Notes under the pieces: model-generated
The model's database searches: none
What the model saw: the letters and a program-made list of their open reading frames with translations, nothing else
What the model was told of the DNA's origin: nothing
Position numbers and translations under genes: made by a program
Part shown: positions 8,737 to 36,820 of the stretch, in pieces
Layout: each line of letters opens with the position of its first letter
Numbering within the stretch: the first letter of the stretch is position 1
Source: Escherichia coli
GTDB lineage: Bacteria > Pseudomonadota > Gammaproteobacteria > Enterobacterales > Enterobacteriaceae
Direction: 5' to 3' (one strand)
Length of the DNA stretch: 64,000 bases
NCBI RefSeq assembly: GCF_001677475.2
Contig: NZ_CP015229.1

Positions 8737-10137
8737 TCAGGTATGTTTAAAGCTGTTCTGCTGGGCAATACCCTGCAGTTTCGGGTGATCGCTGAGATAT
8801 TTCAGGGAGGCTTTGTAGTCTTCCAGCAACAGTTCAGCAAAGTCCATTTCGAAGCCACGACGACACATAATGCGCATCACCACGATGTCAGTGGCTTCAC
8901 CGCCGAGAGTGAAGGCCGGAACCTGCCAGCCGCGCAGACGCAGACGTTCAGAGAGGTCGTAGAGGGTGTATCCCGGATCTTCACCATCTTTCAGTTTGAA
9001 GCAGACCGCCGGGATGCCTTCGTCCGGACGACCGGTACAGATGAACTCATACGGCCCCAGTTTGGCGATCTCATCCGCCAGATAGGTAGCGACCTGATAA
9101 GAGGCGTTCTGTACTTTGGTATAGCCTTCACGACCGAGGCGCAGGAATTCATAGTACTGTGCAATTACCTGACCCGCCGGGCGGGAGAAGTTGATGGCGA
9201 AAGTACCAATCTGACCACCGAGGTAGTCAACGTTGAACACCAGTTCCTGCGGCAGCGCTTCTTCGTCACGCCAGATAACCCAGCCGCAGCCCAGCGGAGC
9301 CAGACCGAATTTATGGCCTGAAGCACTGATCGATTTCACCCGCGGCAGGCGGAAGTCCCAGACGATATCCGGGGCAACGAACGGCGCCAGGAAGCCACCG
9401 CTGGCAGCGTCGATGTGCATGTCGATGTCGATACCGGTGTCGGCCTGGAATTTATCCAGCGCATCGTGCAGCGGTTGCGGGAACTCATAGTTACCGGTGT
9501 AGGTCACGCCGAAAGTCGGCACCACGCCGATGGTGTTTTCGTCGCAGGCTTCAATCATGCGTTTCGGGTCCATAAACAACTGACCGGGGCGCATAGGGAT
9601 CTCACGCAGCTCCACATCCCAGTAGCGGGCGAATTTATGCCAGCAGATTTGTACCGGACCGCACACCAGGTTTGGTTTATCCGTTGGTTTGCCTGCAGCT
9701 TCCATACGCTTGCGCCAACGCCATTTCATCGCCATCCCGCCGAGCATACAGGCCTCGGAAGAACCAATGGTGTTGGTGCCAACGGCCTGACCATTTTTCG
9801 GCGCAGGCGCATGCCACAGATCGGCAACCATATTTACGCAACGCAGGTCAATGGCTGCGGATTGCGGATATTCTTCTTTGTCGATCCAGTTTTTGTTAAT
9901 GGATAAATCCATCAATTTGTGGACATTTTCGTCGTCCCAGGTCTGGCAGAAAGTGGCCAGGTTCTGACGAGCGTTGCCATCAAGATATAATTCGTCATTG
10001 ATAATCTGGAATGCGACATCGTCGCGCATTTCGTGCAGCGGAAAACGTTTTGATTCTGCGATAGTGGAAATAGACTTCGCACCAAAACGTGAATCGAGTA
10101 GTTCCGACCTTAAATCCGTTACTTGCTTCTTATCCAT
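8737..10137 (-). CDS. gadB: Glutamate decarboxylase beta
   Basis: ORF 8737..10206; start trimmed to [24 protein letters not shown]... (466 aa) as in E. coli GadB; gadA is excluded by the gadC neighbour. Confidence 0.92.
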
Positions 10138-10216
10138 TTTAAACTCCTTAAAATGATTGGATCGCATTAAAAAAGTAGGATTTATCGATAAAGTAAGCAA
10201 GTGCAAAGGACTCGTG

Positions 10217-10236
10217 TTTAAATAACAAAATCCTAA
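10217..10236 (-). promoter_or_regulatory. GAD box (GadE/GadX-type binding site) upstream of gadB
   Basis: Minus strand reads TTAGGATTTTGTTATTTAAA, the 20-bp GAD-box consensus known from gadA/gadBC promoters (recalled from literature). Confidence 0.8.
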
Positions 10237-10454
10237 TGTTATTTATCGTGAGATATTACACGAATAATATTTTTTCATTGAAAAACAATATAATATGGAA
10301 TTCCTGGGTGGTGGTAAGGTGTTTTATGCTGTTATTTTTATGCGCATTATGTGCCTCCTGAATTATCACGTAAAAATCAGACCTTAAAATATCACTATTA
10401 GTACTTGGTTATTATTTTGAACGCATTTATAAAATTATTACATAAAAATAGCGA

Positions 10455-10492
10455 ATATTGATAAAATCCCCGCCAACGATGTGTTGACGGGG
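10455..10492 (-). terminator. Putative intrinsic terminator downstream of pqqL
   Basis: Imperfect hairpin ccccgccaac-gatgtg-ttgacgggg (10468..10492) followed on the transcript by attttatcaatat. Confidence 0.45.
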
Positions 10493-10498
10493 CTGTTA

Positions 10499-13294
10499 TT
10501 ATTTTGGCAATAATATTCCAGTATAAGTATTTACCGGATGAGAAAGATATTGTTTAACGGCAGTGTTAACATTCTCTACCGTCATTTGTTTCAACAATTG
10601 CTCCTGCTCAGTCCATGCTGCAGGATCGTCATATTGAATAAGACTATTTACAATAGTGTTCGCTAATTGTTGAACGCTACGCTGTTGGATATCGAGGCTG
10701 CGCTGAACGTTTTGCTGGTATTCATTCAGTTCTTGCTCACTGATCCCTTTAGCCAGACGCTTAACCATCACTTCATTCGCTAACGTTAACAGTTCATCAT
10801 GTCGTTCTGGTTGACAAGTAAAAGCCAGCAAATGACTGATATCTTTGGCCTCAGGATCAACCGAGAGGCGAGAAGAAACGCTGTATGCTCCAGATGCCTG
10901 TTCACGAATATTAACGCGTAGATCTTTTGCCAGTGCGACGTTAAAAGCATCGAGCGCCATACGCGTCTCCAGATTTACAGGTGTCCGGGAATCATAACGT
11001 TTCCACTGTGAAACCTGTGCCACAGGTTCATTTTGTTCTTTTACAGTAACCGATGCGTTGTCCGTCGCGCGAGTTAATGGTTTACCTGCGGCTAATGGCG
11101 AATCAGAGTGTTTGATTGATCCTAAGTAACGCGTAATTAACGCCACGAGTTTGTCTTCTGCGACATTACCGACAATGACAAACGTGATATCCGCTGGAGA
11201 TGAAAACAACTGGCGATCGGCAGCCAGCGCATCTGCGGCAGTAAACTGTGCAATCTGATTTTCTTGCAGTAATTTCGTGCGGTCATCAGCATAGCGCGTC
11301 TCATACATCTGCTGGGCGAATTTCTCCGCTGGACGCTGGTCGAGCGTTTTCAACGCCTGAATTTGAGCATTTTGTAGCGATGCCCAAATATTATCGTTAA
11401 TCGTGCTGTGGGTGATTCGCTGGTTAATCAACTGGAAACCAGGTTCAGGGTTATTAGTCCGCGTGCTAACAGAGAGCAATGTATTCATGCCACTGACTTT
11501 ACTGCTCATGGTTACCGAGTTTTCCGCACTCCAGCGTTTCAGGCTGGAAGAGGAGAGTTCACCAACGCCGCTTCCGCTTACTGCTTTATTTGCCAGCGCG
11601 ATAAGTGATTTTTGCTGCGCAGGGAAACTTAAATCGCCTTTATTAGATACGGCAGTAATTTGTAGCTTTTGCTCTTCACCCGCGGATTTTGCCAGAATAA
11701 CCCTGGCACCATTGGAAAGTGTTAATGATGTCAGATTCTCAGCCAGCGTTTCTTTGCTGCTAATTTCCGCCAGTGGGTCAGCGTCTACTGTTAACGATAA
11801 ATTTCTGCCTGGGAAGATGTAAGCCGCCAGCTTTTTGTTGGCGTACTCTTTTTCCAGCGCCAGGATAGCCGCAGGAGACAATGCTTTTTTGGCAGCAACC
11901 TCATTGTTTACCATTTGCTCCCAAAATGCATCCTGGTTCTTTCTTAACTGCTGCCATTTTTCCGCCAGACTTTGCACGGTAATTTGCTGCCACAGACGTT
12001 TCGAAAGTTGATATGTCTCTTCCGGCGACAAGAACGGCGTATTATTTAATGAGCTGGATGCCAGGCGACTGGTCAGCATACGTAAATCACGTTCAGCTTG
12101 CTGATCAACCGCATTTTTCAGCCAGGTGAGGCGGGTAGATTTGACATCATCGAGTTCTTCAGCAGAAAAACCATGCTGATCAATGGTTGCCAACTCTGCC
12201 ATTAATGCATTCGCAGCATCCTGCATATTATCGTCTCGTGCATTTACACGGAAAAACAGCGACTGATAATCGGGTGCAATTTTAACGCTGCGCGCAGTGC
12301 CGCCAGAAATAGTCTTCAACTCGCCCGACTGTATGCGTTCCTGCAGACGTTGATTGAACAGCTGAACTAACATGCTCCATTCCGCTTGTTCGATAAAGCT
12401 TTGCTCATCGTTCACTTGTACCATTGGCAGGCGATAATAGAGTGCGATGCCGTTCACCCGGTTTTCTTTATCATTAATGATATTAAAGCGCAGGTGATTT
12501 TCGGCTTTTGTCGGCCAGACGCGATTTTCAGCTGCTTTGTTAGCCGGAAGCTTACTTAAATTATCCTTTATCAGCGCCAGCGCTTCTTTACTGTCGATAT
12601 CGCCGACCACGATAAAGGTCATATTATTTGGTTGATACCAGCGTTGATAAAATTGGCGCAATTGTGCCGGTGTGACCGTGGCGACAGTATCCATCAGGCC
12701 GATAGGTTCACGGTCTAAATTACGGGTATTAGCCAGCAGGAAAGGGCGGCGCGCCTGAGAGGTGCGCCATTTCGCATCCTGATGGGCACGCCATTCCTCA
12801 GTAATTACGCCACGTTCAGCGTCAACTTCGAGTTTTTCAAAGGTTGCGGCATTACTCCATTCACTGAAGATTGCCATCACTTGTTGCAGATTTTGTTTCT
12901 GCGTAGTCGGCAAACTCACCTGATACACCGTTTCGTCATAGCTGGTATAGGCATTAACATCGCGACCAAAACGCAGGCCCATTGACTCAAATGTTTCGAT
13001 GACTTTATTACCCGGCCATGTTTTTGTGCCGTTAAACATCATATGTTCTACAAAATGAGCCACGCCGCGCTCATTGTCTTCTTCCTGCAATGAACCGGTA
13101 TGAATTTGCAGCCATAAATTTATCTGATCCTTTGGATGAGCATGCGGATAAATCATATATCGCAAGCCATTGTCCAGTTGCCCGGTAATTAACTTTTCAT
13201 CCTGCGGTAAGGCGGCGGCAATCAGCCGCCCGGGGAGCAACAGAGTTGCCACTAACGTCAGTAAGAAACAGAGGTTTCTCATAATTATCTCCAT
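10499..13294 (-). CDS. pqqL: Periplasmic M16-family zinc peptidase
   Basis: 931-aa ORF with signal peptide and HFVEH (inverted HXXEH) zinc motif; recognised as E. coli PqqL. Confidence 0.9.
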   Translation of the reverse strand: MEIIMRNLCFLLTLVATLLLPGRLIAAALPQDEKLITGQLDNGLRYMIYPHAHPKDQINLWLQIHTGSLQEEDNERGVAHFVEHMMFNGTKTWPGNKVIETFESMGLRFGRDVNAYTSYDETVYQVSLPTTQKQNLQQVMAIFSEWSNAATFEKLEVDAERGVITEEWRAHQDAKWRTSQARRPFLLANTRNLDREPIGLMDTVATVTPAQLRQFYQRWYQPNNMTFIVVGDIDSKEALALIKDNLSKLPANKAAENRVWPTKAENHLRFNIINDKENRVNGIALYYRLPMVQVNDEQSFIEQAEWSMLVQLFNQRLQERIQSGELKTISGGTARSVKIAPDYQSLFFRVNARDDNMQDAANALMAELATIDQHGFSAEELDDVKSTRLTWLKNAVDQQAERDLRMLTSRLASSSLNNTPFLSPEETYQLSKRLWQQITVQSLAEKWQQLRKNQDAFWEQMVNNEVAAKKALSPAAILALEKEYANKKLAAYIFPGRNLSLTVDADPLAEISSKETLAENLTSLTLSNGARVILAKSAGEEQKLQITAVSNKGDLSFPAQQKSLIALANKAVSGSGVGELSSSSLKRWSAENSVTMSSKVSGMNTLLSVSTRTNNPEPGFQLINQRITHSTINDNIWASLQNAQIQALKTLDQRPAEKFAQQMYETRYADDRTKLLQENQIAQFTAADALAADRQLFSSPADITFVIVGNVAEDKLVALITRYLGSIKHSDSPLAAGKPLTRATDNASVTVKEQNEPVAQVSQWKRYDSRTPVNLETRMALDAFNVALAKDLRVNIREQASGAYSVSSRLSVDPEAKDISHLLAFTCQPERHDELLTLANEVMVKRLAKGISEQELNEYQQNVQRSLDIQQRSVQQLANTIVNSLIQYDDPAAWTEQEQLLKQMTVENVNTAVKQYLSHPVNTYTGILLPK

Positions 13295-13338
13295 GCGAAA
13301 ACCGGGCGAATTTACCCGGTTAAGTAAAATCCGAACTA

Positions 13339-15711
13339 TTAAAATTTCATGCTGACATCAAGCCAGAAAGTACGGCCACTGGCGTAGGTCGCCACACCGG
13401 TATTCGTTGTATCAACAGCGGTTTTGCTATCCAGTACATTGAGAATATCGGCACTGATCGTCAGGTTTTGTTGTTTCAGAAATTGTGGCGTCCAGGACAA
13501 GCGGGTGTCCCAGGTCAGGCTGCTATCCAGTTTTTCGTCAACATACTGCTTGTAATCTGAATATTCGCTGTTGTATTGCGCATTCGTCTTACCCAGGATA
13601 ATGCGAGCTTTACGCGCTTCTTGCCAGGCCAGCGTATTCGCCCACACCAACCCGCTCGGTTGATGCGTGAAATCCATGTTTAAGGAGATCTTTAATGGGT
13701 TATTAAAATCCGCCACTGGAACGCTATCGTAAGAAACCAGATTACCGTTATAAACCACCTGGTTATCACCGGTATTGCTCTCCTCATAACCATTGTTTAA
13801 CGACAAGTTGCCCTTGCTCTTGATATAGCTAAAGACAATTTGCGGGTTAATATCTACCTGGCTGATATGCAGGGGTTCGGCCAGTTCAAGACTGAGGTTA
13901 AACGAATGCGTTTTGGTTTTGCCGTCGTTGTTATATTCAGTAATGGTGGTTTTAGTCGCGCTGTCGGTACGACTGCTTTTGCTGATTTGATCATGCGCTT
14001 CACGGTAAACATAGTTTGCGCGCGCAATAACGTTCTTACCGAATTTTTGCTGCAATCCCATTGCCAGTTCATCGTTATAAGGCGTTTTCAAATCCTGATA
14101 ACGCGTCAGGGTTTTATTGCCTGATACAGATTCCGTCCAGCTATTGCGGATATCACGTAATCCCATATCAAGAATATTCCCGCCATAGTAACGGTTATAA
14201 CCTGCGGTAATCATTGAGGTTTGATCAGCAAAAATATCCCATTCCGTCATAAAGCGTGGGGAAATATTGTGGTTTGACAGATAGTTGTCATAGTCATACC
14301 GCACGCCGGGCATTAACGACACATTACGCCAGCTAATGCGATCCGCCATATACAGCGTGTAGTTGTCAATTCCCAGGCTGCCTTTACCTTTATGGTAAAT
14401 GGTATGGTTAGTTTTCTTTCCGGCAGCATTAATCACATAGGATTCAGACTGGTTATGGCGTTCGGTCCATGCATCGGAATAGATGTATTCCGCGCCGAAG
14501 TAGGGTTGATGAGAAACATTACCCACGGTGAATTTTTGCCAGTCCAGGCGTGTTTTGAAGGTGTAATTATCTACAGCCTGGGAAATGTGTCCTAATCCGC
14601 CACGGGTGCAACGCCCTGTAATATCACCATATGTACATGAAAGTTCGGTGTACCAGATGTCATGATCGTGACGGGTATAATCACTAATATGATCCCAACC
14701 AACGGTGGTACGTAGTTTGGCCCATGCGAGATGCGTATCCATATCCCATGCCAGACCGTAGGATTTATTACCCATTTCGCGATCAGACTGCGGGAAGGTG
14801 CTGGTATTATAATCACGGCTGGAGCCGGTATATTTTAAGGTTAAATCGTGGGTAAAGCGGTCGCTGGCAAACCAGGTAAATTTGCTCACTGCGGTATCGA
14901 TAACGTTTTTGTACTGTGCCCGACCGGCGACAATGCCGTCATTCGAAACATAATCCGCGCGGGTGATATCAGACTGGCGGCGCGATAAACCGGCGGTAAC
15001 GCCGAAGTTATGAGCGAGTTCCTGATTAAATGACAAAGTATAAAAGTTCTTTTTAAAATCTGGAGAGTAATAAGTACTTCCTGAAGAACCTTGATTAAAT
15101 GCGCTCTTGTTATTCTCATCGATATGCGATGTTAACCAGTCCGAACGCGTAGTGCGGTAACCCAGTTTCACGCTGCTATCATCAGCGTTGAAGCGTTTGA
15201 TCTTTGCATCAATTACCCCGCCATTGAAGCGACCAAATTCAACCGGCACAAAACTGTCATAAAGCGTCACATTGTCCAGTAAGCTGACATCAAGATAATA
15301 CCCCTGTGACATCCCGCTAATATTGGTTGCACTACTGGCATCGGACTCATTCGCTGGGTTCAGGTTATTAGTTGCACTAATACCGTCAATCAAATAGGCA
15401 TTCTGGTAGGGCGACGCACCGTGAATAGAGATTTTCTCCGGGCGAATATCTCCCTGGTTCAACGAGGTACTTTGCGTTGAATCCATGCGTACCGCAGGGT
15501 TGGTTCTCAGCAGATCGCTGATATTGCCATTCCCGGTCGGTAAACGCTCGATGCTTTCACTGGTGTAATGCGTGTTGCCGTTTACGGGTACAGGGACAGG
15601 AGCATAGACCGTCATCTCTTCAAAAAAATGCATGTACATGTTTTTGTCATCGACGGCCTGCGCCACATCAGCGCCACATAAAATGACGCCAGGAATAAGA
15701 ACTCGCTTCAT
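13339..15711 (-). CDS. yddB: TonB-dependent outer-membrane receptor
   Basis: 790-aa ORF with signal peptide and C-terminal aromatic residue (…VSMKF); recognised as YddB, partner of PqqL. Confidence 0.85.
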   Translation of the reverse strand: MKRVLIPGVILCGADVAQAVDDKNMYMHFFEEMTVYAPVPVPVNGNTHYTSESIERLPTGNGNISDLLRTNPAVRMDSTQSTSLNQGDIRPEKISIHGASPYQNAYLIDGISATNNLNPANESDASSATNISGMSQGYYLDVSLLDNVTLYDSFVPVEFGRFNGGVIDAKIKRFNADDSSVKLGYRTTRSDWLTSHIDENNKSAFNQGSSGSTYYSPDFKKNFYTLSFNQELAHNFGVTAGLSRRQSDITRADYVSNDGIVAGRAQYKNVIDTAVSKFTWFASDRFTHDLTLKYTGSSRDYNTSTFPQSDREMGNKSYGLAWDMDTHLAWAKLRTTVGWDHISDYTRHDHDIWYTELSCTYGDITGRCTRGGLGHISQAVDNYTFKTRLDWQKFTVGNVSHQPYFGAEYIYSDAWTERHNQSESYVINAAGKKTNHTIYHKGKGSLGIDNYTLYMADRISWRNVSLMPGVRYDYDNYLSNHNISPRFMTEWDIFADQTSMITAGYNRYYGGNILDMGLRDIRNSWTESVSGNKTLTRYQDLKTPYNDELAMGLQQKFGKNVIARANYVYREAHDQISKSSRTDSATKTTITEYNNDGKTKTHSFNLSLELAEPLHISQVDINPQIVFSYIKSKGNLSLNNGYEESNTGDNQVVYNGNLVSYDSVPVADFNNPLKISLNMDFTHQPSGLVWANTLAWQEARKARIILGKTNAQYNSEYSDYKQYVDEKLDSSLTWDTRLSWTPQFLKQQNLTISADILNVLDSKTAVDTTNTGVATYASGRTFWLDVSMKF

Positions 15712-15748
15712 TTATTTATATCTCCGTACAGCAGGGCTTTTATTGTTT

Positions 15749-17434
15749 TTATAAAACCGCGCTAATGTCACAAATATCATCAGCCAGGTTCCAGACACCG
15801 GGTTGATGTGTAACCATAATGACGCCGCTTGTGGGTAGTTTTTCACGCACTAAACGCAGTAAGCGGATAGCCTCTTGTTCCTCAAGATGAGAGGTAGTTT
15901 CGTCAAGAAATATCCATTTCGGACGTCGTAAAATTAATCGTGCCAGGGCGATACGTTGTTTTTCGCCGCTGGAAAGAATATCTCCCCAGCGATCGTGGTC
16001 ATGAATACGCGCAGCCAATTTCCCCAGACCAACCTGATGCAGTACTTCGCTCAACGATTTATCGTCTACGGGCAGGGGAAGTGCTTTACAAATAATCTCT
16101 TTCAGTAAGCCGGTTTTGATTAACGGTGTTTGTGACACATACCAACTGTCAGCAGGAGAAGAAATATAACCTTTAAACCACGGCCAGCAGTGAGATAATG
16201 TTTTAAGCAGTGTGGTTTTTCCCGCACCAGAGTAACCTTTCAGTAATAGCCATTTGCCTGGCGGAACATGAAAGTTCAGGTTCTCTAATATGATCTTATT
16301 ATCAGGGGTACGAATACTCGCGTCAGCCACTTGTACCGCATGTTGGCAATTTTTAGGCTTATTCGTAGGGCGCTGTTCGGTGAGTTGATGGAACTCATAC
16401 AAGCGATCGATAACCGCAGCCAGTTCAGCAATTTCATCATATTTATAAATAAACCAGCTTAAATTGTTCGATACCAGCATAAATGCCTGGCGCGATTTCA
16501 TAAGTCCGCCCAGATTGATCTGTCCGCTAATAAACTGCGGCAATAACAGAAAGTAGGGAAGAACGCTAAGCGAACGCGAATAAATATTCTGCCAGTAATC
16601 AAGCCACCGCTGACGATTCATTAAACGATGCCAGTTCTCTTTAATGGTATGAAAATTGTCGCTCAACTCCTGGCGTTGTAGAGACTCAGCATTGCTTAGC
16701 GCAATCAGTTCTGCCTGTTTATTATGCTGCACAAGATTAGTTCGAAATGTCGCTTCGCTACGTTGTTTTTCCACATTAAGCGGACGAATACGTTTACCCA
16801 CCTTATGGGTAAATAAAGTTCCACCGATCACAATGAGCACGACGGTATAGACCATATACCCCTGGATATTCCATTCTGTTCCACCAACAGTGAATGAGAG
16901 CGTACCCGCACTTTGCCAAAGAATAACGGTAAAGGTGATCAGCATGCTAAGCGACTGGATGAAGCCAAATGAAAGGCTGAGCGTTTTACTGATCAGTAAG
17001 AGAATGTCCTCAGCGATACGTTGGTCAGGGTTATCTGTATTTTTATGCTCGCCGTAGATTTGCGTGAAGTAGTAGTTTTTATCTGCAAACCAGCGATTAA
17101 GATAGTAATCTGTTAACCATTCGCGCCAGCGAATAGTCAGTAGTTTAATTAACCATGTTTTGTTTACGGATATTAATACAAAGATCCCCAGCAGGGCAGG
17201 GAACCAAAGAACAAGCTGCCAAAGCTTATCGGTTTCTTTCTGGCTTAGCGCATTGAAAAAATCATTATTCCAGTCGTTTAACCAGACCTGAATTTTAACA
17301 ACGCCAAGGATCATGGCGAGGATAATAATGATTAACAGCACTGAAGTTTTATTATTCTTACGCAGCCAAAAGGGCTTCAGCAGACAGAGATACTTTGCTA
17401 TCAACATACAAAACGTAATGGGAATGGTTATCAT
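15749..17434 (-). CDS. yddA: Fused ABC transporter permease/ATP-binding protein
   Basis: 561-aa ORF; N-terminal transmembrane region, C-terminal Walker A (GYSGAGKTT) and signature LSSGEKQR. Confidence 0.85.
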   Translation of the reverse strand: MITIPITFCMLIAKYLCLLKPFWLRKNNKTSVLLIIIILAMILGVVKIQVWLNDWNNDFFNALSQKETDKLWQLVLWFPALLGIFVLISVNKTWLIKLLTIRWREWLTDYYLNRWFADKNYYFTQIYGEHKNTDNPDQRIAEDILLLISKTLSLSFGFIQSLSMLITFTVILWQSAGTLSFTVGGTEWNIQGYMVYTVVLIVIGGTLFTHKVGKRIRPLNVEKQRSEATFRTNLVQHNKQAELIALSNAESLQRQELSDNFHTIKENWHRLMNRQRWLDYWQNIYSRSLSVLPYFLLLPQFISGQINLGGLMKSRQAFMLVSNNLSWFIYKYDEIAELAAVIDRLYEFHQLTEQRPTNKPKNCQHAVQVADASIRTPDNKIILENLNFHVPPGKWLLLKGYSGAGKTTLLKTLSHCWPWFKGYISSPADSWYVSQTPLIKTGLLKEIICKALPLPVDDKSLSEVLHQVGLGKLAARIHDHDRWGDILSSGEKQRIALARLILRRPKWIFLDETTSHLEEQEAIRLLRLVREKLPTSGVIMVTHQPGVWNLADDICDISAVL

Positions 17435-17730
17435 TAGCGAAAATTGATTGTGCCATCCAATGATTGTCTATGGCAATGATTTACTGATGAAATTTATTTA
17501 AGTGTCATTTAACAATATGAAATATAAAGGAATATTTCATTTTCAGTGGTTATGGTTATGCTATTGATAATCAAGGATATTGCTAATGCTAATGCCCTGA
17601 CGCATACCACGTAAGCCAGGATTTTCGCAAGGGAAGATGATGATGACGAAACACCCGACAGGAATATGTGTCGGGTGCATTGTTAAGGTCATAAGAAGGA
17701 GGCTAAGACTGGAGCTAAGAGGGAGCGTTA

Positions 17731-18888
17731 TTAATTATTCTCCATTTGTCTTGCAACATCCATGATGTGGTAAAGCGGTACTCTGTTCTTAGCTAACTCC
17801 ACCATGGCGTTCAAATAAGGCACCATGGTTGAAAAAAGGATTTTATAACCTTCACAAAAATAGGAAACAGTCTCATTGTTTACTTTAGTAATACGATGCT
17901 TAGGACAACCGCCATTGCAGATAGGTTTATATGCACATTGCTGACATTTCGCTGAAATCCGTTTTTTTTGCGCTGTCAGTTGAACACTGTTCATCGTTTT
18001 GAGTTCAGATTTATTAATGTTTCCAATTTTGTACTGTGGATAGACAAAATGGTCGCATTCGTAAATGTCTCCATTACTTTCAACAACCAGATTATCCTTG
18101 CAGGACTCCTGGAAAATACAACTGGTATGCCCATTCCCCAAAAAACGGCTGACAAAGCTTTCAAACTGACGGATGAAAATTTCACCCACATCGTTTTTAA
18201 CCCATTGCATAAAAATGGTCGACATAAACTTGCCATAAGCCGTAGGAGGCACAGAAAAATCAATGATACGGAATGTGTTCTCACTATGACCACTGAAATC
18301 AATATTCGGCGTCCCGGTTTCGAGCAATTCGATAAATTGCATATGTTTACTGCCGATAGATTTTAAAAAATGATAAACCTCAAGAGGGTAATGGACATTA
18401 ACGTTATTAATGACGGTTAACGTATTAAACTCTACTTGATATGATTTCAGACGCTCGATGGCTGCTATCACTTTTGTAAAAGTACCGTTACCTGAATTAC
18501 TGCGTCTGTAACGGTCATGTAGCTCCTGGGGTCCATCGATCGAGATACCAACCAGAAACTCATGTTCTTTGAGAAAGGCACACCATTCATTATTCAATAA
18601 AATGCCATTCGTTTGTAATGCATTAAAAATACGTTTTTGGCCTGCATAGCGTTGTTGATAGTGAATAACTTTACGGAAAAAATCCAGGCCAGCCAGAGTG
18701 GGTTCACCGCCTTGCCAGGTAAAATAGACCTGATTGCCAGACGCTGCGATATATTGTTTGATGAACTCTTTCAGAGTGCTGTCATCCATCCATTTTTCAT
18801 GAGTAAACTGCGACTCTTTTTCAAGGTAAAAACAGTAATCACATTTGAGATTACATTGAAAACTGGAGGGCTTGGCTGTAACGTGCAT
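17731..18888 (-). CDS. ydeM: Radical-SAM anaerobic sulfatase-maturating enzyme homolog
   Basis: ORF 17731..18903 trimmed to [21 protein letters not shown]... (385 aa); CxxxCxxC radical-SAM motif. Confidence 0.85.
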
Positions 18889-18939
18889 CGCTATCTCGCT
18901 CAATAAGGCGGCGGAAAATTCCGCCGCATGAAGGTTTAG

Positions 18940-20622
18940 TTATTTCGCTTCGCTTAGTGCTTTCTTGATATTGTTAAACTTCTCCTGATTTACCTCGCTA
19001 AGCGGTGGCTGGCTGCTGTCGATAAACTCTCTTACCACGCCTTGCATCTCTTTAACGACCTGCGGATTGGCGGCGGCAAGGTTATCTTTTTGCTGTAGAT
19101 CCGTCAGTTTGTATAGACCTAACTGATTGTTTTCTACTGTATAGACAAGCGAATAATCGTTATTTCTCACCGTATAAGAGAATTGGCTTAAGTCCTCAGT
19201 GTTGGGGTTATGCGGGTAATCGTCTGACTGATGACGGACAAATTTGTGGTAATTATCCCAGAATGGAATATTTTCCTCGTCAAACCAGTGAGAATAAGAG
19301 GTTATCCAGGTCAGATTTTTATGTGGCTCGCCTTGTTTCTTATCTTGCAACCAGGGCAGCAAGGAAACGCCATCCAGCTTAAGGTCTTTTGGAATGCTGA
19401 TATCGGCTGCATCAAGAGCTGTCGGGTAGAAATCCATTGCGGAAATCAGCTTGTCATAATTACCGGGTTGAAGTTTTCCTTTCCACCACATAAACATTGG
19501 GGTGTGAGTACCGCCAGGATAGGTCTGACTCTTATAGCCTTTTTGCGCCCCGTTCAGCGGCAGAGGACCATCGATAACCGCACCATTATCGGAGGTAAAG
19601 AGAATAATTGTATTGTCATACTGTCCGTTTTTCTTCAGTTGTTCGAGAATGCGTTTTACACCCTGATCAACAGAATAAACGGAAGCGTAGTAGTTATCTG
19701 CCGTTTGACTACCGGTATTAAATTGCTTCTGATATTGCTCCGGTGCAGGATTATCATTTGGCAGGTGCGGAGCATTATAAGCCAGGTAAAGCATAAAAGG
19801 CTGGTCAAGTGTTTTGGCACGATCAACAACGCCAATTGCCTCATCGGTTAACTGATCGCTGATATAACCTTTTGCGGGGACGCGTTCACGATTTTTGAAC
19901 AGTGAAGGGGAGTTGTAATATGCCGTTCCTGCAGCGTGGAATCCCATAAAGTAATCAAAGCCACGGTTTTGCGGTTGCCATTCTTCCGCAGAAAATGTGG
20001 TGAAGTTGTCATGATAGTCACGCGTTTGTTTATCTTCCGGTACCGGCACATTACTGATTTTTGACAAGTGCCATTTACCTACTGCTGCAGTGTAATAACC
20101 ATGATTCTGGAATAATTCAGGCAAGAAAGTTTCTGTTAGCGGAATACCATCCTGAGCATCAGTATTGGAATAGACACCAAAGCGGGCGGGTGCTCGACCG
20201 GTCATTATTGCGGCGCGGGAGGGGCCGGAAACACCGTGCGCCACATAGCCGTTAGTAAAACGTACGCCTTCATCCATTAATGAAAGGAGCGTCGGCGTTG
20301 ATTTTTGCGCAGCTTCAATGGCTTTATCTATCCCTATTTTGTAGGTATCGACAACTTCACGATTTTCCATTGTTTTTGGGTCAAAAGATCCCTTATCAAA
20401 AGGAAGTTGTCCATAACCAAGATCATCCATGGTCAGTACGATAATATTTGGCTTTCCTTTGGTACTGTATTCAGTCGGCGTAAAGTCTGAGAAAGCAACG
20501 TTTGTTTTGGTTGCTTTCAGCTTTACATCATCTGCCGCATGAGCAGCAAATGCAGTCATACCAGATGCCAGTATCAAAGATATCGAGGTACTTACGACAC
20601 TTTTCTTTAATGCAGACTTCAT
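18940..20622 (-). CDS. ydeN: Putative sulfatase (secreted)
   Basis: ORF 18940..20655 trimmed to MKSALKKSVVSTSISLILASG... (560 aa); adjacent to its putative maturase ydeM. Confidence 0.85.
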   Translation of the reverse strand: MKSALKKSVVSTSISLILASGMTAFAAHAADDVKLKATKTNVAFSDFTPTEYSTKGKPNIIVLTMDDLGYGQLPFDKGSFDPKTMENREVVDTYKIGIDKAIEAAQKSTPTLLSLMDEGVRFTNGYVAHGVSGPSRAAIMTGRAPARFGVYSNTDAQDGIPLTETFLPELFQNHGYYTAAVGKWHLSKISNVPVPEDKQTRDYHDNFTTFSAEEWQPQNRGFDYFMGFHAAGTAYYNSPSLFKNRERVPAKGYISDQLTDEAIGVVDRAKTLDQPFMLYLAYNAPHLPNDNPAPEQYQKQFNTGSQTADNYYASVYSVDQGVKRILEQLKKNGQYDNTIILFTSDNGAVIDGPLPLNGAQKGYKSQTYPGGTHTPMFMWWKGKLQPGNYDKLISAMDFYPTALDAADISIPKDLKLDGVSLLPWLQDKKQGEPHKNLTWITSYSHWFDEENIPFWDNYHKFVRHQSDDYPHNPNTEDLSQFSYTVRNNDYSLVYTVENNQLGLYKLTDLQQKDNLAAANPQVVKEMQGVVREFIDSSQPPLSEVNQEKFNNIKKALSEAK

Positions 20623-20954
20623 AAATGTTCCTCTTCTTATTGTACTTAATTCCAAAGTAATTTTACGAAGAGAAATAAGTGGATGTAAGTGAAGTTAGTC
20701 ACATAAAGAGATAGCAGATTTAGCTAAAAAAAGGGAAATAACAGTCCATAAAGCGTTGACATTACTTTTTGTTCTACTAAGTAATTTCTCGACGATAAAC
20801 AACTAATCTATTGATATTTAATAAATTATTGTATTTTACTGACAAAATGCCGAATTAAGATCATAAATAATCATGCAACAGGTTATGCAAATGCATAAAT
20901 ATGTGATGAATGTCACTTATTTATTTCAATAAATATATCGCCTAAAAACAACGC

Positions 20955-29642: not shown

Positions 29643-30362
29643 TTACTGCATGGTTGCCTTAATACGCGGAGTTAATGCACCGTAATCATTGATCGTCTGA
29701 AAACTGATGTCCCCGGTTGCAGCATGCGGGATATCCACCGATACTTCACCTTTTGGCGGCACCATGGTGTTTGGGAGATTGCTATTTCCTGCTTTCATAT
29801 TTGTTACGGTAATGAAGTAGGGCGTTGGATTAATAAGAGTGAGTTTGCTACCGCTGCGACGAAACCGAAGCATTGCAGGCGCTTCTTCAGGTGCCATTGC
29901 CAGGTTCGTGGGGCGATAAAACATTTTTATGCGGCTAATAATTGCCAGCTGTAATGTATTCTCATTCTTCTGGTCTTTTTCCATAGCAGGAATAGCTTTA
30001 ACATTAACCCAGAACAGGCTTTCACGGTCGCCTGGTAACTGATGATTAGTGGCGTTGATTATCCGCAGCGTATTCTCTTTTTTACCTTGCATGGAAAAAA
30101 GCGGTGGGGTAATGACAAACTGGGTGTCTTTTTGGTCACCTGCATTTTCTATCCATGACTGAATGAGATAGACACTGGCAGGATCATTATTCGTGACAGG
30201 CAATAAAACCTGTTTCTGGTTTGCCGGATAAATTACCCGCGTCGCACCCAGTGCGACAGCTGCGTTGGCAACGGTGCTATGGCAAGCAAAGAGCAATAAA
30301 AGTAACACTGTCGCCATAAAGGAAATAGAGTAGGGGGTACGCGTAGTTTGCATCTGATGCAT
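29643..30362 (-). CDS. Periplasmic fimbrial chaperone (PapD/FimC family)
   Basis: 239-aa ORF with signal peptide, immediately upstream of the usher. Confidence 0.85.
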   Translation of the reverse strand: MHQMQTTRTPYSISFMATVLLLLLFACHSTVANAAVALGATRVIYPANQKQVLLPVTNNDPASVYLIQSWIENAGDQKDTQFVITPPLFSMQGKKENTLRIINATNHQLPGDRESLFWVNVKAIPAMEKDQKNENTLQLAIISRIKMFYRPTNLAMAPEEAPAMLRFRRSGSKLTLINPTPYFITVTNMKAGNSNLPNTMVPPKGEVSVDIPHAATGDISFQTINDYGALTPRIKATMQ

Positions 30363-30714
30363 TCTCCATGTGTTAAGAGGATAAGCGGGGAAACCGTTAC
30401 ATCAGACAATCGGTAAATGTTGCTAATACATTGGCGACTCGCTGGGTTTCCATACTTAATGCGTTTGTAATAAATGTTGGTTCTCTTTTAATAGGAAAAC
30501 CTTGCTACAAAGTAAATTTTTTAAATAACAGTAAATTTAACTACTGTTGTTTATTGATCGTTTAGATATTATGTGATTTTTCATAGTGCTCCCAAATAAA
30601 AACCATTTCTCATTAAAAATGAGATGAACATTGGTGAGTTGCTCGGGTGTGCGTAGCCATGCCACACACACCCTGTTTCAATTTCAGATGACGTATAGCC
30701 ACCTTAAGATTGAA

Positions 30715-31278
30715 TTATAGATATTGAACTTTGAAGGTCGCATCTGCGTTTGCAGTACCAGCTACTGACTGCCCGAGAGCAATATAACGAGCCTGGAATG
30801 GCAGTATATTCGTGCCATCAATCAAGTCAGTTTTAGCGCTAAAAGTGGTACCATCAAGTATTAATACCTCCCCCGTACGGTCCAAAATTTGAATACCAAC
30901 ATTTTGGGCAGAGCCTGCCGCTGAACTCTGCAGCGCTAACGTGTCGTCATTACTGGTGACAGTAGTACCCAGGAATGCAACAGCTGCATTACTGGAAACA
31001 TTGGTATCACAATCATTCAGCTTGATATTGAAGCCAACGGCGGAGCTGAGGTCACCCGCTTTAGCCAGACGAGAAGAACGGACCTGACCCAGCTCAACCG
31101 TTTGGTTCATTGATTCTGAATCAATCGCACAAGCGGCATTTACCACTTCACCTTTAAAATGAATAACACCGCCATTAACAGTGGTCGTTACTGATTCATC
31201 ACCCTCGGCTGCGCTTACCGCAGCAGACGACATCGCCAACACAGAAACGACAATCATACCGACATGTTTGAGTTTCAT
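30715..31278 (-). CDS. Major fimbrial subunit (FimA-like)
   Basis: ORF 30715..31326 trimmed to [23 protein letters not shown]... (187 aa), preceded by GGAG; first gene of the operon. Confidence 0.8.
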
Positions 31279-31711
31279 AATTCTCCAAAATCTATATTTA
31301 AGTAGCTGAATAAAGAGAGTTAACAATTAAGTCATTCTGTTATTGCTTATAAAACAAGAATCATTCTTGATTGGTTGTTGCCCTGAGAATATAGTTTCCA
31401 GGGTTATTACATTTCACGAAGAACGATAATATCTTTAAATCACAAGGACACCTAATCACAACAAGTTTATTGCTGCACTTGTTGGAGAGAGTATTTGCAA
31501 AAACATTTTATGGCGCTAAATAACATGACGATTTCATTATGCATGTTATTTATAAACCGTGACTAAACAGAATATTATTGCGGACAAGGGAAGTGTCAGG
31601 AAAGGTCAAGAGATACTAATGGTTTATATGGCTATAAATCATTAGTTATGGTTAATGTTTGCCTGGTGTAACTAACACGGAATTGCTCTAAACAGATAAG
31701 TGCAGGGTTTA

Positions 31712-32062
31712 TTAAAGCTGACCGACAGACTTTCTTAACCTGGTAATATCTCTCTTAGGTGACTCTCCAAACATCCGCGAATATTCCCGACTGAAATGGG
31801 ATAAGCTTTCGTAACCGACAGCATAGGCTGCAGTGGTGACATCGTAATGTTCATTCAGCATCGGTCGCCTGGCTTCATTGAGGCGTAGCCATTTCTGATA
31901 CCGGAGTGGACTCATTCCCGCAAGCTGTCTGAAGTGTTGATGGAAAGAGGGGGGTTCATTTGCACGCGGTTTGCCAGCCTGACTCTTCAACGCAGGGAAG
32001 ATGCGGCAAACGGCAAACCTGCATACCAGCCAGCCTATATCCGGTATGCACAGGCTAATCAT
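31712..32062 (-). pseudogene. yneL: AraC-family regulator fragment (HTH domain only)
   Basis: 116-aa ORF carrying only an AraC-type HTH (…LSHFSREYSRMFGESPKRD…) with no sensing domain; corresponds to the yneL remnant that flanks dif in K-12. Confidence 0.6.
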
Positions 32063-32141
32063 GAAAGAGGAGAGGCTTTATGTTCTTGAACCCTGAAGTA
32101 ATAACGACGACCGGAAAATCGCTTCGCATCACTCAAACTCA

Positions 32142-32169
32142 ATTTAACATAATATACATTATGCGCACT
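32142..32169. other. dif-like site, left junction (attL): host-like XerD arm, phage-like XerC arm
   Basis: ATTTAACATAA-TATACA-TTATGCGCACT; 27 of 28 identical to the reverse complement of E. coli dif (GGTGCGCATAATGTATATTATGTTAAAT, recalled); the single mismatch is the outermost base of the XerC arm. Confidence 0.85.
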
Positions 32170-32181
32170 AAGGTGCGCATA
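32160..32181 (+). repeat. 9-bp perfect inverted repeat of the XerC-binding arm
   Basis: TATGCGCAC-TAAG-GTGCGCATA; the left half is the XerC arm of attL, the right half an inverted copy; overlaps a 10-bp palindrome CGCATATGCG (32176..32185). Confidence 0.8.
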
Positions 32182-32202
32182 TGCGTATTCTGGAGGTGTG
32201 TC

Positions 32203-33066
32203 ATGGCTTGTACTCGTCCTTTGAACGCGTACCAAATGCCATCGGGGAAGATTTTTTTCACGCCGTCACGTGGCGCTAAATTCATTCAGTTGCCCTGTGG
32301 TCAGTGCATCGGTTGCCGTCTTGCTCATTCTCGTGACTGGGCGACCCGCTGCGTTCATGAAGCCCACATGCACGATCACAATTGTTTTATCACTCTGACT
32401 TATTCGCCTGAGAATTTACCTGAAGGCGGTACTCTCGTTCGTAAACATTTCACCGATTTTATGAAGCGTTTGCGTAAGGAATTAGATAAGGATGATGTGA
32501 AAATTCGTTATTTTGGCTGTGGTGAATATGGCTCTAAATTAGAGCGACCGCATTATCATGCGATTATTTTTGGTTATGATTTTCCGGATAAGACACTTTA
32601 TAAAGCGGGAAGATTTAATTTATTTAATTCCCCGCTTCTTTCGAGATGTTGGAATCTTGGTTGGGCTGTTATTGCTGGTTTTAGTTTTGAGTCGGCTGCT
32701 TATGTGGCGCGATACTGTGTTAAAAAAATCAACGGTTTCCGTGCAGATGAGCATTATGGACATCGCCTACCCGAGTTTTCGGCTATGAGTAATCGCCCAG
32801 GTATTGGGTATGATTTTTTTATGACCTATTACGAGGATATTGTTAATGCAGATGCGTGTATTGGTCGTGGCGGTCGTCAGATAAAACCGCCCCGCTATTA
32901 TGACAAGTTATTATCAGGCTGTGATTTGGAAAAGTTGCAGCAGAATAAAGAAAAGCGCCAGTTAAATGCCCGTGTATTAGACCCGTGGCGTTTGCAGGAT
33001 TTGGATAAGTTTAATCTGGTTAAATTCCAGCGAATGATGAGGAAATTAGAAGATGGCTCACTCTGA
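32203..33066 (+). CDS. Replication initiation protein (VP4, rolling-circle HUH endonuclease)
   Basis: Track ORF 32080..33066 trimmed to MACTRPLNAYQ… (287 aa) with GGAGG 6 nt upstream. Rolling-circle motifs: FITLTY, HYHAIIF (HUH), AAYVARYCVKK (catalytic Tyr pair), plus CGQCIGC. Confidence 0.9.
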   Translation: MACTRPLNAYQMPSGKIFFTPSRGAKFIQLPCGQCIGCRLAHSRDWATRCVHEAHMHDHNCFITLTYSPENLPEGGTLVRKHFTDFMKRLRKELDKDDVKIRYFGCGEYGSKLERPHYHAIIFGYDFPDKTLYKAGRFNLFNSPLLSRCWNLGWAVIAGFSFESAAYVARYCVKKINGFRADEHYGHRLPEFSAMSNRPGIGYDFFMTYYEDIVNADACIGRGGRQIKPPRYYDKLLSGCDLEKLQQNKEKRQLNARVLDPWRLQDLDKFNLVKFQRMMRKLEDGSL

Positions 33067-33322
33067 TGCAGTTTATGTAATTCATGACAAGCTGATTGCG
33101 GCTGATGTTTTTATGTTTATGGCCCAGCATGATGGTATTGCGAAAGGCAATTTGCACGCGTTCTGTAACCGTATGCAGCGCACTGACTTTGTGCTGTACC
33201 GTGTGACGGCTTATGACTTTGAAGACCAGCAGCTCGTCCCCGTGGACATTGACCGCGTTTATATTTGCACCGCTTTCCCTGCCATGCTGGAGAATGCCCA
33301 AGATGAAATCCTTGAAGCGTAA
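33053..33322 (+). CDS. Small phage protein, VP5-like
   Basis: 89-aa ORF overlapping the VP4 3' end and the VP3 start; assigned by size and position in the gokushovirus gene order, not by motif. Confidence 0.6.
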   Translation: MAHSDAVYVIHDKLIAADVFMFMAQHDGIAKGNLHAFCNRMQRTDFVLYRVTAYDFEDQQLVPVDIDRVYICTAFPAMLENAQDEILEA

Positions 33323-33815
33323 GTTCCATACCCGCTATGACCCGCCGCCGTCGCCCGGCATCGAGTTCAAAGAACCCACGATGACCCAGCAGCATTTCCG
33401 CGATGAGTGCGACATCAACAAGATTGTTGAGCGTGCGATAAGAACGGGAGATACGACAGTCTTTACCAGTGCTCAACGTGCTGATTTCTACGATGCATCT
33501 TCGATTACTGACTACGTGGACGCAATGGCTTTAATTGACGACGTTAACGACGACTTTAACAGCCTGCCGTCCACGATTCGCTCGATGTTTGGTAATAACG
33601 TTAAGCAGTACGTTGAGTGGATGAGTAATCCCGCGAACTGGAATAAAGCCCGTGAGCTTGGATTGTTGAGCGGCGGAGAGGAGTCGGCGACCGAACGCGC
33701 CAGCGTTCGCGAGTCGAGTCCTGCTCCGGCGTCCCCGCGGGAGCGTGAGCGGACTTCGGAGAGTTCCCCGAAGGGGGAGTCGGAGAAGTCTGCGAATAAT
33801 GATGCAGGCTCATGA
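33303..33815 (+). CDS. Internal scaffolding protein, VP3-like
   Basis: ORF 33213..33815; likely start MKSLKRKFHTRYDPPPSPGIEF… (33303, or 33294); acidic Ser/Glu-rich C-terminus. Assigned by position and size. Confidence 0.6.
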   Translation: MKSLKRKFHTRYDPPPSPGIEFKEPTMTQQHFRDECDINKIVERAIRTGDTTVFTSAQRADFYDASSITDYVDAMALIDDVNDDFNSLPSTIRSMFGNNVKQYVEWMSNPANWNKARELGLLSGGEESATERASVRESSPAPASPRERERTSESSPKGESEKSANNDAGS

Positions 33816-33855
33816 GCTGCATGAAAAAAACCTGAAGACGGCTCCGGCCCTTCAG

Positions 33856-33892
33856 CCTGGCACAGTGGCCCTCTTGATGTAACTGTGCCAGG
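33856..33892 (+). repeat. 11-bp perfect stem-loop in the VP3-VP1 intergenic region
   Basis: cctggcacagt-(15 nt)-actgtgccagg. Confidence 0.8.
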
Positions 33893-33904
33893 TGACACCG
33901 AAAC

Positions 33905-33932
33905 TTACAGGCGGCTCCCACGAAGCCTGTAA
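33905..33932 (+). repeat. 8-bp stem-loop in the VP3-VP1 intergenic region
   Basis: ttacaggc-(12 nt)-gcctgtaa. Confidence 0.75.
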
Positions 33933-33992
33933 AAAGGTGTCAGTTTATACAGTAGTTTGTGTAGTATTTAAACAATTCCCTGAGGGGGGTTT

Positions 33993-35705: not shown

Positions 35706-35722
35706 GTTACATTGTCACTTTT

Positions 35723-35745
35723 GGCCTCTGCGGAGGCCTTTTTTT
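35723..35745 (+). terminator. Intrinsic terminator/attenuator after the capsid gene
   Basis: ggcctc-tgcg-gaggcc followed by TTTTTTT. Confidence 0.7.
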
Positions 35746-35759
35746 CATGAGGTGAAATT

Positions 35760-36542
35760 ATGGGCTTTTTATCATCTGCCATTGGTGCCGCTGGTTCTAT
35801 TGCCGGCTCCCTGCTTGGTGCGAACTCTGCGAAGGATTCAGCTAACCGTGCCAATAAGTTAACGATGGATTTGGCCAAAAACGGCATCCAGTACCGTGTG
35901 CAGGATTTACGGAAAGCTGGCCTTAACCCCATTCTGGCCGTTACTGGTTCCGGTGGTCTTGGTTCCGTCAGTTCGTCAGGTATTCAGGCCGCCCAGCCTG
36001 CCGATTTTTCTGGTGTGGTTAATTCTGCGGTCAGCGTATTTGACGCATTAACGAAGCGTCAGCAGCAGGAAGTCGCTAAGGAAGGCATCATGTCCCAGAT
36101 TGCGTTACAACGTAACCAGATTGCGAATAGCGCGGCTGATGTGAAGCTCAAAGAGGCTCAGGCTGCGCAAGCCTTATCTTCCATTTCTACTGGTAATGCC
36201 CAGACTAATTTGATTAATCAGCAGGCTTTGACCGAGGCTTCCCGCCGTGCCAATATTGAAGCACAGACGGGCCTTAGTTCTGCGCAGCGGATTAGAACAC
36301 AGTATCAAACTGTACAGGACAAGGTTTTGGCTGATTATTTGAATACACCGATTGGAGCTGAAAGTGCACGTGTCAATATGGATGCTTCTCGCGGTGGTAT
36401 CGTTGGCGGCGTTAATACTTTTCTGCGTTCTTTGCAACGTGATTACCCGTCTAACTCGAACTCTGCGAAGAAAGTAAACAAGGGGGGAACCTTCCCCCCT
36501 TCACAGTTCCAACAGCAATTGATTAATAACTATCGGAGGTAA
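35760..36542 (+). CDS. Minor capsid / DNA pilot protein (VP2-like)
   Basis: 260-aa ORF with Gly/Ala/Ser-rich N-terminus (MGFLSSAIGAAGSIAGSLLGANSA…) and Gln/Ala-rich predicted coiled region; RBS GAGGTG; position after VP1. Confidence 0.7.
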   Translation: MGFLSSAIGAAGSIAGSLLGANSAKDSANRANKLTMDLAKNGIQYRVQDLRKAGLNPILAVTGSGGLGSVSSSGIQAAQPADFSGVVNSAVSVFDALTKRQQQEVAKEGIMSQIALQRNQIANSAADVKLKEAQAAQALSSISTGNAQTNLINQQALTEASRRANIEAQTGLSSAQRIRTQYQTVQDKVLADYLNTPIGAESARVNMDASRGGIVGGVNTFLRSLQRDYPSNSNSAKKVNKGGTFPPSQFQQQLINNYRR

Positions 36543-36543
36543 T

Positions 36544-36663
36544 ATGGCTCGTTCTCGCCGTCGTATGTCCAAGCGTTCTTCCCGTCGTTCGTTCCGTAAG
36601 TACGCAAAGACGCATAAACGTAACTTTAAAGCCCGCTCTATGCGTGGTGGAATTCGTCTTTGA
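36544..36663 (+). CDS. Small basic DNA-binding protein (VP8 / J-like), absent from the ORF track
   Basis: ATG at 36544, stop TGA 36661..36663; translation MARSRRRMSKRSSRRSFRKYAKTHKRNFKARSMRGGIRL (39 aa, roughly 40% Arg/Lys). Confidence 0.7.
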   Translation: MARSRRRMSKRSSRRSFRKYAKTHKRNFKARSMRGGIRL

Positions 36664-36693
36664 TTGACAAAGTTGATCGTAACGATCTATGAT
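36664..36693 (+). promoter_or_regulatory. Putative sigma70 promoter at the prophage right end
   Basis: TTGACA (36664..36669), 18-bp spacer, TATGAT (36688..36693); the spacer contains GATCGTAACGATC with two GATC sites. Pattern match only. Confidence 0.35.
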
Positions 36694-36716
36694 AATTATC
36701 GTAAGTCGTTGTTTTT

Positions 36717-36744: not shown

Positions 36745-36820
36745 AACATAAACCAAGGGAGAATCCAGTCGTTGGCGGTCATGATTGTCCTGCTCATTAA
36801 CAACGGCCAAACCCCATATC

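Follow-up and report, generated by a model that had tools for sequence, protein, structure and literature searches.

Import of a protein across the outer membrane, followed by its proteolysis in the periplasm, is an unusual nutrient route, whose archetype is the ferredoxin uptake (Fus) system of Pectobacterium and Dickeya, encoded in the order FusB-FusA-FusC-FusD. In 2016, the Escherichia coli proteins YddB, PqqL and YddA were named as homologues of, respectively, FusA, FusC and FusD, and an integrated function was argued for them (PMC5095587). We analysed the genes for these three proteins at positions 10499-17434 of a stretch of 64,000 nucleotides from E. coli contig NZ_CP015229.1 (hereafter, the window), which an earlier note, made from the sequence alone, had likened to ferredoxin uptake in Pectobacterium. 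This likeness is also the published view (PMC5095587, PMC6793856), and our matches to FusA and FusC in the Protein Data Bank (PDB) agree with it. The operon is a Fur-repressed relative of Fus and a 'protease-associated import system', and we consider it fairly probable that it works by the four-step mechanism outlined below. The feature is real and was correctly read, but it has already been described in detail: everything that the earlier note proposed has been in print since 2016-2019, and the window makes the question of the substrate no more testable.

According to the list of open reading frames (ORFs), region 10499-17434 consists of three intact, co-oriented ORFs, all on the minus strand. 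In the order of transcription, they are:

15749-17434, minus strand: yddA, first gene of the operon, 561 aa; ATP-binding cassette (ABC) half-transporter of the SbmA/BacA (ABC_membrane_2) type, with fused transmembrane domain (TMD) and nucleotide-binding domain (NBD)
13339-15711, minus strand: yddB, 790 aa; FusA-like TonB-dependent outer-membrane transporter (TBDT)
10499-13294, minus strand: pqqL, 931 aa; periplasmic, single-chain double M16 zinc protease, FusC-like

The trio of M16 protease, TonB-dependent receptor and ABC protein, co-oriented and tightly spaced, is thus as first described: its limits are exact to the base, the Pfam domains agree, and the intergenic gaps are only 37 nt (yddA-yddB) and 44 nt (yddB-pqqL), both the same as in K-12. 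In a megablast comparison of positions 9500-18500 with 5,426 complete RefSeq E. coli genomes, the matching regions are annotated as pqqL, yddB and yddA, with gadB and ydeM as the flanking genes, and the region is colinear with b1494-b1496 of K-12 MG1655. Nucleotide identity to K-12 is 98.9% for pqqL, 98.0% for yddB and 98.1% for yddA, with no stop codons; the deduced products differ from those of K-12 at 9 (PqqL), 13 (YddB) and 6 (YddA) residues, and so few changes are as expected for genes under purifying selection. None of the 5,426 genomes is identical to the window, and the best match reaches 98.6% at the operon. With ORFs, domains and annotation in agreement, and with a colinear region of 98-99% identity in K-12, it is essentially certain that we are dealing with the yddA-yddB-pqqL operon of the E. 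coli chromosome, intact and ordinary.

PqqL contains the Pfam domains Peptidase_M16 and Peptidase_M16_C, as a pair that occurs twice, together with the inverted zinc motif HFVEH at residues 80-84, E167, and a hydrophobic N-terminus or signal peptide. Its PDB matches include PqqL itself (6OFS and 6OFT) and FusC (6B03, 6B05 and 6BRS; ca. 1e-58, residues 9-930). A further entry, 9LDY_A ('Peptidase, M16 family', 916 aa), is nearer to PqqL (2.9e-82) than FusC is, and is not mentioned in a 2025 review of the M16 family. In the RefSeq PGAP annotation pqqL starts at 13282, four codons later than the ORF. We rejected PqqL as a PqqF-type protease of pyrroloquinoline quinone (PQQ) biosynthesis, since it scores 48.1 bits with the equivalog model TIGR02110, whose cut-off is 320. 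The protein has been crystallized and shown to be a periplasmic, active peptidase, induced by the iron chelator bipyridyl, which prefers short peptides with the motif F/Y-F/Y-V/A; the chambers of PqqL and FusC have room for a small globular protein (PMC6793856).

For YddB, the only Pfam domain is the TonB-dependent receptor Plug. The protein contains a signal peptide and a TonB-box-like motif, EEMTVYA, at residues 31-37, which is found again in YddB homologues, and its C-terminus reads ...SMKF. A phmmer search of the PDB (E<1e-5) retrieved only two proteins, YddB with its own structure 6OFR (residues 29-790; 1719 bits) and FusA, the ferredoxin receptor, with 4ZGV (7e-80); no solved siderophore receptor of the FepA/FhuA/CirA type was matched at this threshold. 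A classical siderophore receptor was thus discarded, given the lack of detectable similarity to the solved ones and of any NCBIfam match at E<=1e-10. Likewise, no NCBIfam family was above its cut-off for any of PqqL, YddB or YddA. Alignment with the TBDT from a Dickeya fus-type cluster extends over 93% of YddB, with 29% identity, and the extracellular pocket in the crystal structure of YddB, 6OFR, measures about 28 Å (PMC6793856). YddB from E. fergusonii is only 86% identical to that of the window. There is also a YddB paralogue, P0013, with 69% identity (L005, 8001-10364, and L006, 3687-6050, labelled as E. coli O146, third-party annotation (TPA) assembly), situated beside IS66 and IS110 transposase genes and a Se_S_carrier gene. 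It was not retained as a further cassette, because there is no ABC gene in its upstream flank and no M16 gene in the 513 bp downstream.

YddA matches the Pfam families ABC_membrane_2 (1.4e-43), SbmA_BacA (1.9e-34) and ABC_tran (1.4e-18), and PF00664 (ABC_membrane, of the MsbA/Sav1866 type) is not among its matches at E<=0.001. Its motifs are intact: Walker A GYSGAGKT, signature LSSGEKQ, Walker B WIFLDE and H-loop VTHQ. The top PDB relative is 6TQE ('ABC transporter ATP-binding protein/permease'; 3.5e-67, residues 35-552), followed by ABCD transporters, and matches of the P-glycoprotein type are confined to the NBD. A multidrug exporter of the MsbA/Sav1866 type was therefore rejected, both for its TMD, which is of the ABC_membrane_2/SbmA_BacA type, and for these closest solved relatives. 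We take 6TQE to be Rv1819c from Mycobacterium tuberculosis, an importer of hydrophilic compounds with an exporter-type fold. Members of the SbmA/BacA/Rv1819c family have an exporter-type fold, yet those characterised import hydrophilic compounds, peptides and cobalamin; the term 'ABC exporter-type' that the earlier note applied to YddA thus holds for the fold, but not for what the characterised members of its family do. An import direction for YddA is suggested by its SbmA_BacA/ABC_membrane_2 TMD and by its relation to 6TQE, presumably an importer.

That the three genes are transcribed as a single unit, controlled by iron and Fur, is deduced from the short gaps, the flanking terminators with no internal one, the Fur-like box and published reverse transcription-PCR (RT-PCR), Fur and chelator data. 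The features that bear on this are:

17447-17476, minus strand: candidate sigma-70-like promoter from a consensus scan, TTGCCA, 18-nt spacer, (TG)CACAAT, just upstream of the Fur-like box
17420-17438, minus strand: Fur-like box GCTAATGATAACCATTCCC, matching 15 of 19 consensus positions and overlapping the annotated yddA ATG
13300-13321, minus strand: hairpin AACCGGGU...GCCCGGUU of 8 bp, followed by UUUCGC, in the yddB-pqqL gap; identical in K-12
10468-10492, minus strand: intrinsic terminator downstream of pqqL, with a G+C-rich stem of 10 bp and then AUUUUAU; -18.9 kcal/mol, z = -5.2, 0 of 200 shuffles as good
17651-17678, minus strand: terminator-like hairpin after ydeM, followed by UUUCGUC; -19.2 kcal/mol, z = -5.6, 0 of 200 shuffles as good

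The sequence GCTAATGATAACCATTCCC is the putative Fur box reported for strain CFT073 (PMC3855560), and it is unchanged in K-12 and in a Shiga toxin-producing E. coli (STEC) strain. A Hamming scan of both strands of the 64-kb window found only two sites with at least 15 of 19 matches to the Fur consensus. A search for the 19-mer consensus allowing up to three mismatches found nothing; the published box has four. The earlier note had pointed to positions 17435-17730 as the place to look for a Fur box, and there is indeed a Fur-like box upstream of the operon, but the best site is not inside that range and overlaps the start codon, at 17420-17438. The spacer of the candidate promoter at 17447-17476 contains the Fur-like core GACAATCATT; sigma-70-like sites are not commoner in this region than in shuffled sequence, so that we list it as a candidate, not as a mapped promoter.

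Published experiments point the same way. RT-PCR amplicons across both junctions showed that yddA, yddB and pqqL are co-transcribed (PMC3855560, 2013), and in the same study the genes were de-repressed in a fur mutant, the same Fur box was pointed out, expression was induced more than 30-fold in urine, and mutants in yddB and in pqqL were outcompeted in mouse bacteraemia (PMC3855560). Binding of Fur upstream of yddAB-pqqL has also been reported (PMC4676285), as has induction of the genes in serum, together with detection of the Fur box at yddA (PMC4145685). The outcome that the earlier note had named as contrary to its reading, independent transcription of three functionally unrelated genes, is thus not what the RT-PCR co-transcription and the up-regulation in the fur mutant show (PMC3855560).

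The annotated start of yddA may be nine codons too long, with the true start at Met10 (17407). In an N-terminal alignment, the YddA homologues from six other loci begin 8-17 residues later and align near Met10, whose ATG is at 17407. No Shine-Dalgarno sequence precedes the annotated ATG (17434), which is within the Fur-like box and only some 13 nt away from the candidate -10 element. With Met10 as the real start, the Fur-like box would fall in the 5' untranslated region.

No significant terminator was found inside the operon, and an Rfam scan of positions 9500-19000 at E<=1 retrieved no known RNA. The hairpin at 13300-13321 was considered as an attenuator and discarded, since its fold is no more stable than that of shuffled sequences (z = -1.1); judging by its predicted folding, it is probably not one. 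Directly upstream of yddA, and co-oriented with it, are ydeM, for a radical-SAM/SPASM anaerobic sulfatase maturase, and ydeN, for a sulfatase (together 17731-20655, minus strand). The predicted hairpin at 17651-17678 would separate this ydeNM unit from the yddA promoter region. With this strong hairpin in between, and with both genes absent from every homologous cassette examined, we rejected them as members of the cassette, and they are probably outside the import system. The 3' end of ydeM is overlapped by an intact ORF of 40 codons, yneP (its K-12 name; 17643-17765, plus strand), divergent from yddA. Of its 40 residues, 5 differ from K-12, a proportion far higher than in the genes around it, and this points to weak constraint. 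At 17584-17595, with the ydeM hairpin on one side and the candidate promoter on the other, the window contains a 6-bp tandem duplication, GCATTA GCATTA, that is present neither in K-12 nor in an STEC strain. Farther away, positions 30000-50000 of the window, with lsr genes, hipA, an autotransporter gene and a capsid-protein gene, have a best match of only about 96%, and only six genomes cover at least 80% of this query, so that the window stems either from a divergent lineage of Escherichia or from a genome not among the 5,426 compared.

To situate the operon among other bacteria, we examined the gene neighbourhoods of homologues of YddB and of YddA at falling levels of identity and compared the neighbouring genes with the proteins of the window. 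The triad of ABC, TBDT and M16 genes was found in six other loci, listed here with a receptor locus that lacks it (identities are to, respectively, YddB, PqqL and YddA):

L007: ABC-TBDT-M16, same order; 61/46/53%
L008 and L009 (Orbaceae): ABC-TBDT-M16, same order; 45/40/50%
L012: ABC-TBDT-M16, same order; 44/41/51%
L011 (Muribacter muris): TBDT-M16, with the ABC gene convergent; 27/25/34%
L013 (Dickeya-type): TonB-TBDT-M16-ABC, the fusBACD arrangement; 29/24/37%
L014 (Pseudomonas): extracytoplasmic function (ECF) sigma-FecR-TBDT-M16-ABC; 27/23/37%
L010 (Oryzisolibacter): TBDT with a cytochrome c peroxidase gene, and neither M16 nor ABC gene; TBDT 30%

An arrangement such as that of Oryzisolibacter has already been described (PMC6793856). 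The flanking genes are entirely different in L007, L008/L009 and L012, and in each of these loci there is a single Fur-like site with 16 of 19 matches, located 63-90 nt upstream of the ABC gene. Likewise, the Dickeya cluster is preceded by a Fur-like site with 15 of 19 matches. The three proteins diverge in step across loci, which argues for co-inheritance. Judged from these comparisons, the conserved triad and its Fur-like sites lend independent computational support to functional linkage and iron control. This is a modest addition to what was known: the triad, plus the Fur-like box in the closer relatives, is kept in gut-associated relatives such as Orbaceae, without a plant-pathogen lifestyle.

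The proposed mechanism starts with iron limitation, upon which Fur leaves the box at the start of yddA and the three genes are expressed from one mRNA, as shown in the literature. YddB, powered by the housekeeping TonB, would then use its extracellular pocket, which is unusually large, to import across the outer membrane a protein or peptide that is small and contains iron, as its structure and homology suggest. In the periplasm, PqqL, whose activity and location have been demonstrated, would close on this substrate, cleave it and free the cofactor or cofactor-bearing fragments. Finally, a YddA homodimer would carry the released product into the cytoplasm, as expected from its family.

Several observations weigh against this mechanism. 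No natural substrate has been described in the literature up to 2026, in line with the remark of the earlier note on E. coli, and a paper of that year still names none for the distant homologues of Fus (PMC13253070). PqqL cleaved neither human or plant ferredoxins nor globins, and mutants in yddB and pqqL grow like the wild type in iron-limited lysogeny broth (LB), even in a background devoid of any iron TBDT (PMC6793856). In CFT073, the transcripts did not respond to dipyridyl or to added iron alone (PMC3855560). With 790 aa, YddB is below the receptors of about 100 kDa that are held to be typical of protein importers (PMC6042079), and one paper has assigned to YddA a role in drug efflux (PMC9728188). 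Of the complete E. coli genomes, 14.5% lack the operon, which is thus dispensable. Lastly, the dedicated TonB of the Pectobacterium archetype, FusB, does not occur in the E. coli cluster: a tblastn search with the protein at the FusB position in Dickeya against the whole window gave a best E of 0.68. In Pectobacterium, FusB contacts the substrate directly and is mechanistically central (PMC7593965, PMC13253070).

An alternative retains the import but changes its cargo, such that YddB would admit a short peptide-like ligand, PqqL would trim it and YddA, like SbmA/BacA, would import the peptide; the cassette would then serve for a peptide, or for a metallophore or cofactor linked to one, and not for a folded protein. 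The TMD of YddA, SbmA/BacA-like according to Pfam, would suit this function, as would the label 'vitamin B12/bleomycin/antimicrobial peptide transport system' borne by close members of its family and the size of YddB, which is that of a siderophore receptor. PqqL cuts short F/Y-F/Y-V/A peptides and none of the tested proteins (PMC6793856), and, according to work cited in PMC3855560, pqqL complemented PQQ-peptide processing genes in Methylobacterium. Conversely, the crystal pocket of YddB is protein-sized and FusA-like, and the PqqL/FusC chamber fits a small globular protein (PMC6793856). Since YddB also lacks a sequence relation to solved small-ligand TBDTs at E<1e-5, we regard peptide import as rather unlikely. 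Less credible still is a cluster for envelope or drug traffic, in which YddA would be an ATP-driven multidrug efflux pump and YddB a passive channel for drug entry. It would account for the greater sensitivity of yddA knockouts to norfloxacin, tetracyclines, ethidium and other compounds and for the vanadate-sensitive efflux (PMC9728188, 2020), as well as for the 8-fold higher minimal inhibitory concentration of novobiocin in a yddB mutant, which was complemented (PMC6503746). However, knocking out yddA may have had polar effects on yddB and pqqL, and drug entry through a TBDT would be a common side effect and not a function. YddA belongs to ABC_membrane_2/SbmA_BacA, with PF00664 not among its Pfam matches, and its top solved relative, 6TQE, is not a multidrug pump. 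Moreover, a role in efflux leaves unexplained both the control by Fur and the fact that the gene is always accompanied by those for a TBDT and for an M16 protease, and we consider it quite improbable.

Two further readings have next to no probability left. That three independently transcribed, unrelated genes are neighbours by chance could only appeal to the weak hairpin at 13300-13321 in the yddB-pqqL gap, which does not stand out from shuffled sequences (z = -1.1); this reading is already refuted by the gaps of only 37 and 44 nt, by the RT-PCR across both junctions (PMC3855560) and by the conservation of the triad at 25-61% identity in unrelated contexts. Equally remote is a cluster serving PQQ metabolism, with PqqL as a PqqF-type biosynthetic protease. 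PqqL does match the PqqF model weakly, but its 48 bits are far from the equivalog cut-off of 320. The receptor identified in a preprint on TonB-dependent uptake of PQQ is reportedly YncD. The name of the gene comes from complementation of Methylobacterium pqqE/F mutants, as cited in PMC3855560; E. coli makes no PQQ (PMC3855560), and that preprint lists the function of YddB as unknown (10.1101/2022.06.07.495086), so that this reading is effectively refuted. The Fus-like, protease-associated import of an iron-containing protein or peptide is the reading that we favour.

Among the 5,426 complete E. coli genomes, yddB is present in 4,641 and absent from 785. There are at least two clean deletion alleles, in which yddA and yddB are gone along with two thirds of pqqL from its 5' end, so that only a remnant of 0.9-1.2 kb from the 3' end of pqqL persists, beside ydeM:

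JJ1887 type (L003): lacks window positions 11413-17720
23AR0762 type (L004; urine isolate): lacks window positions ca. 11662-17620

We take JJ1887 to belong to sequence type 131 (ST131); no paper on the deletion came up when the literature was searched for pqqL together with ST131. Other strains carry independent insertion sequence (IS) elements: IS2 and IS1 in yddB, IS1B in yddA and IS5 in pqqL (matches H6/H11, H7, H41 and H44). Among database proteins, fusions and truncations in the calls of these three genes are common. The clean deletion of the operon in roughly a seventh of the complete E. coli genomes and the probably overlong annotation of yddA are the other modest additions of this analysis. 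From the absence of yddB in 785 of 5,426 genomes, the at least two independent deletion alleles and the IS insertions in each gene, one might speculate, as a long shot, that repeated clean loss reflects selection against YddB as an entry gate for a so far undescribed protein toxin (a bacteriocin with a substrate mimic), a phage or a drug such as novobiocin. Pectocins M1 and M2, which exploit FusA, would be the parallel for a putative YddB-directed bacteriocin. If toxin entry through YddB were true, finding the toxin would also reveal the natural protein substrate.

Among known systems, the operon of K-12 and CFT073 (b1496-b1494; structures 6OFR, 6OFS and 6OFT) is the same locus, with identical gene order, lengths, gaps and Fur-like box, and the window shows only allelic differences from it, including the 6-bp GCATTA tandem duplication upstream of yddA. 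With 6TQE and the SbmA/BacA family, YddA shares domains and fold; unlike them, it is encoded in one operon with an outer-membrane transporter and a protease, and one report claims that it functions in efflux (PMC9728188). The Pseudomonas cassette, L014, contains the same three transport and processing genes as the E. coli operon, but adjoins ECF sigma and FecR-like genes and encodes a longer receptor, of 963 aa. This suggests that it is under cell-surface signalling control, whereas the E. coli operon, without such regulator genes, appears to rely on Fur alone.

The Fus system of Pectobacterium and Dickeya shares with the E. coli operon a FusA-like TBDT, a double-M16 protease with the HxxEH motif and a fused ABC protein of the SbmA/BacA type. 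Both also have a Fur-like box upstream and lack a periplasmic binding protein (PMC5095587, PMC6042079); in the window, there is no binding-protein gene between gadB and ydeM. The ABC protein encoded in the fusD position of the Dickeya-type locus aligns with 98% of YddA, at 37% identity. They differ in that YddB, PqqL and YddA show only 29, 24 and 37% identity to the Dickeya fus-type proteins, in that the order is ABC-TBDT-M16 in E. coli and TonB-TBDT-M16-ABC in Fus, and in the shorter receptor of E. coli, of 790 aa versus 856 aa in Dickeya. The substrate differs as well, since PqqL does not cleave plant or human ferredoxins (PMC6793856). A dedicated TonB is not required by the 2019 definition of a Fus-like protease-associated import system (Grinter et al. 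2016/2019), and the E. coli operon combines a TBDT of the FusA lineage, an adjacent FusC-like M16 protease and a FusD-like ABC protein in one Fur-controlled unit.

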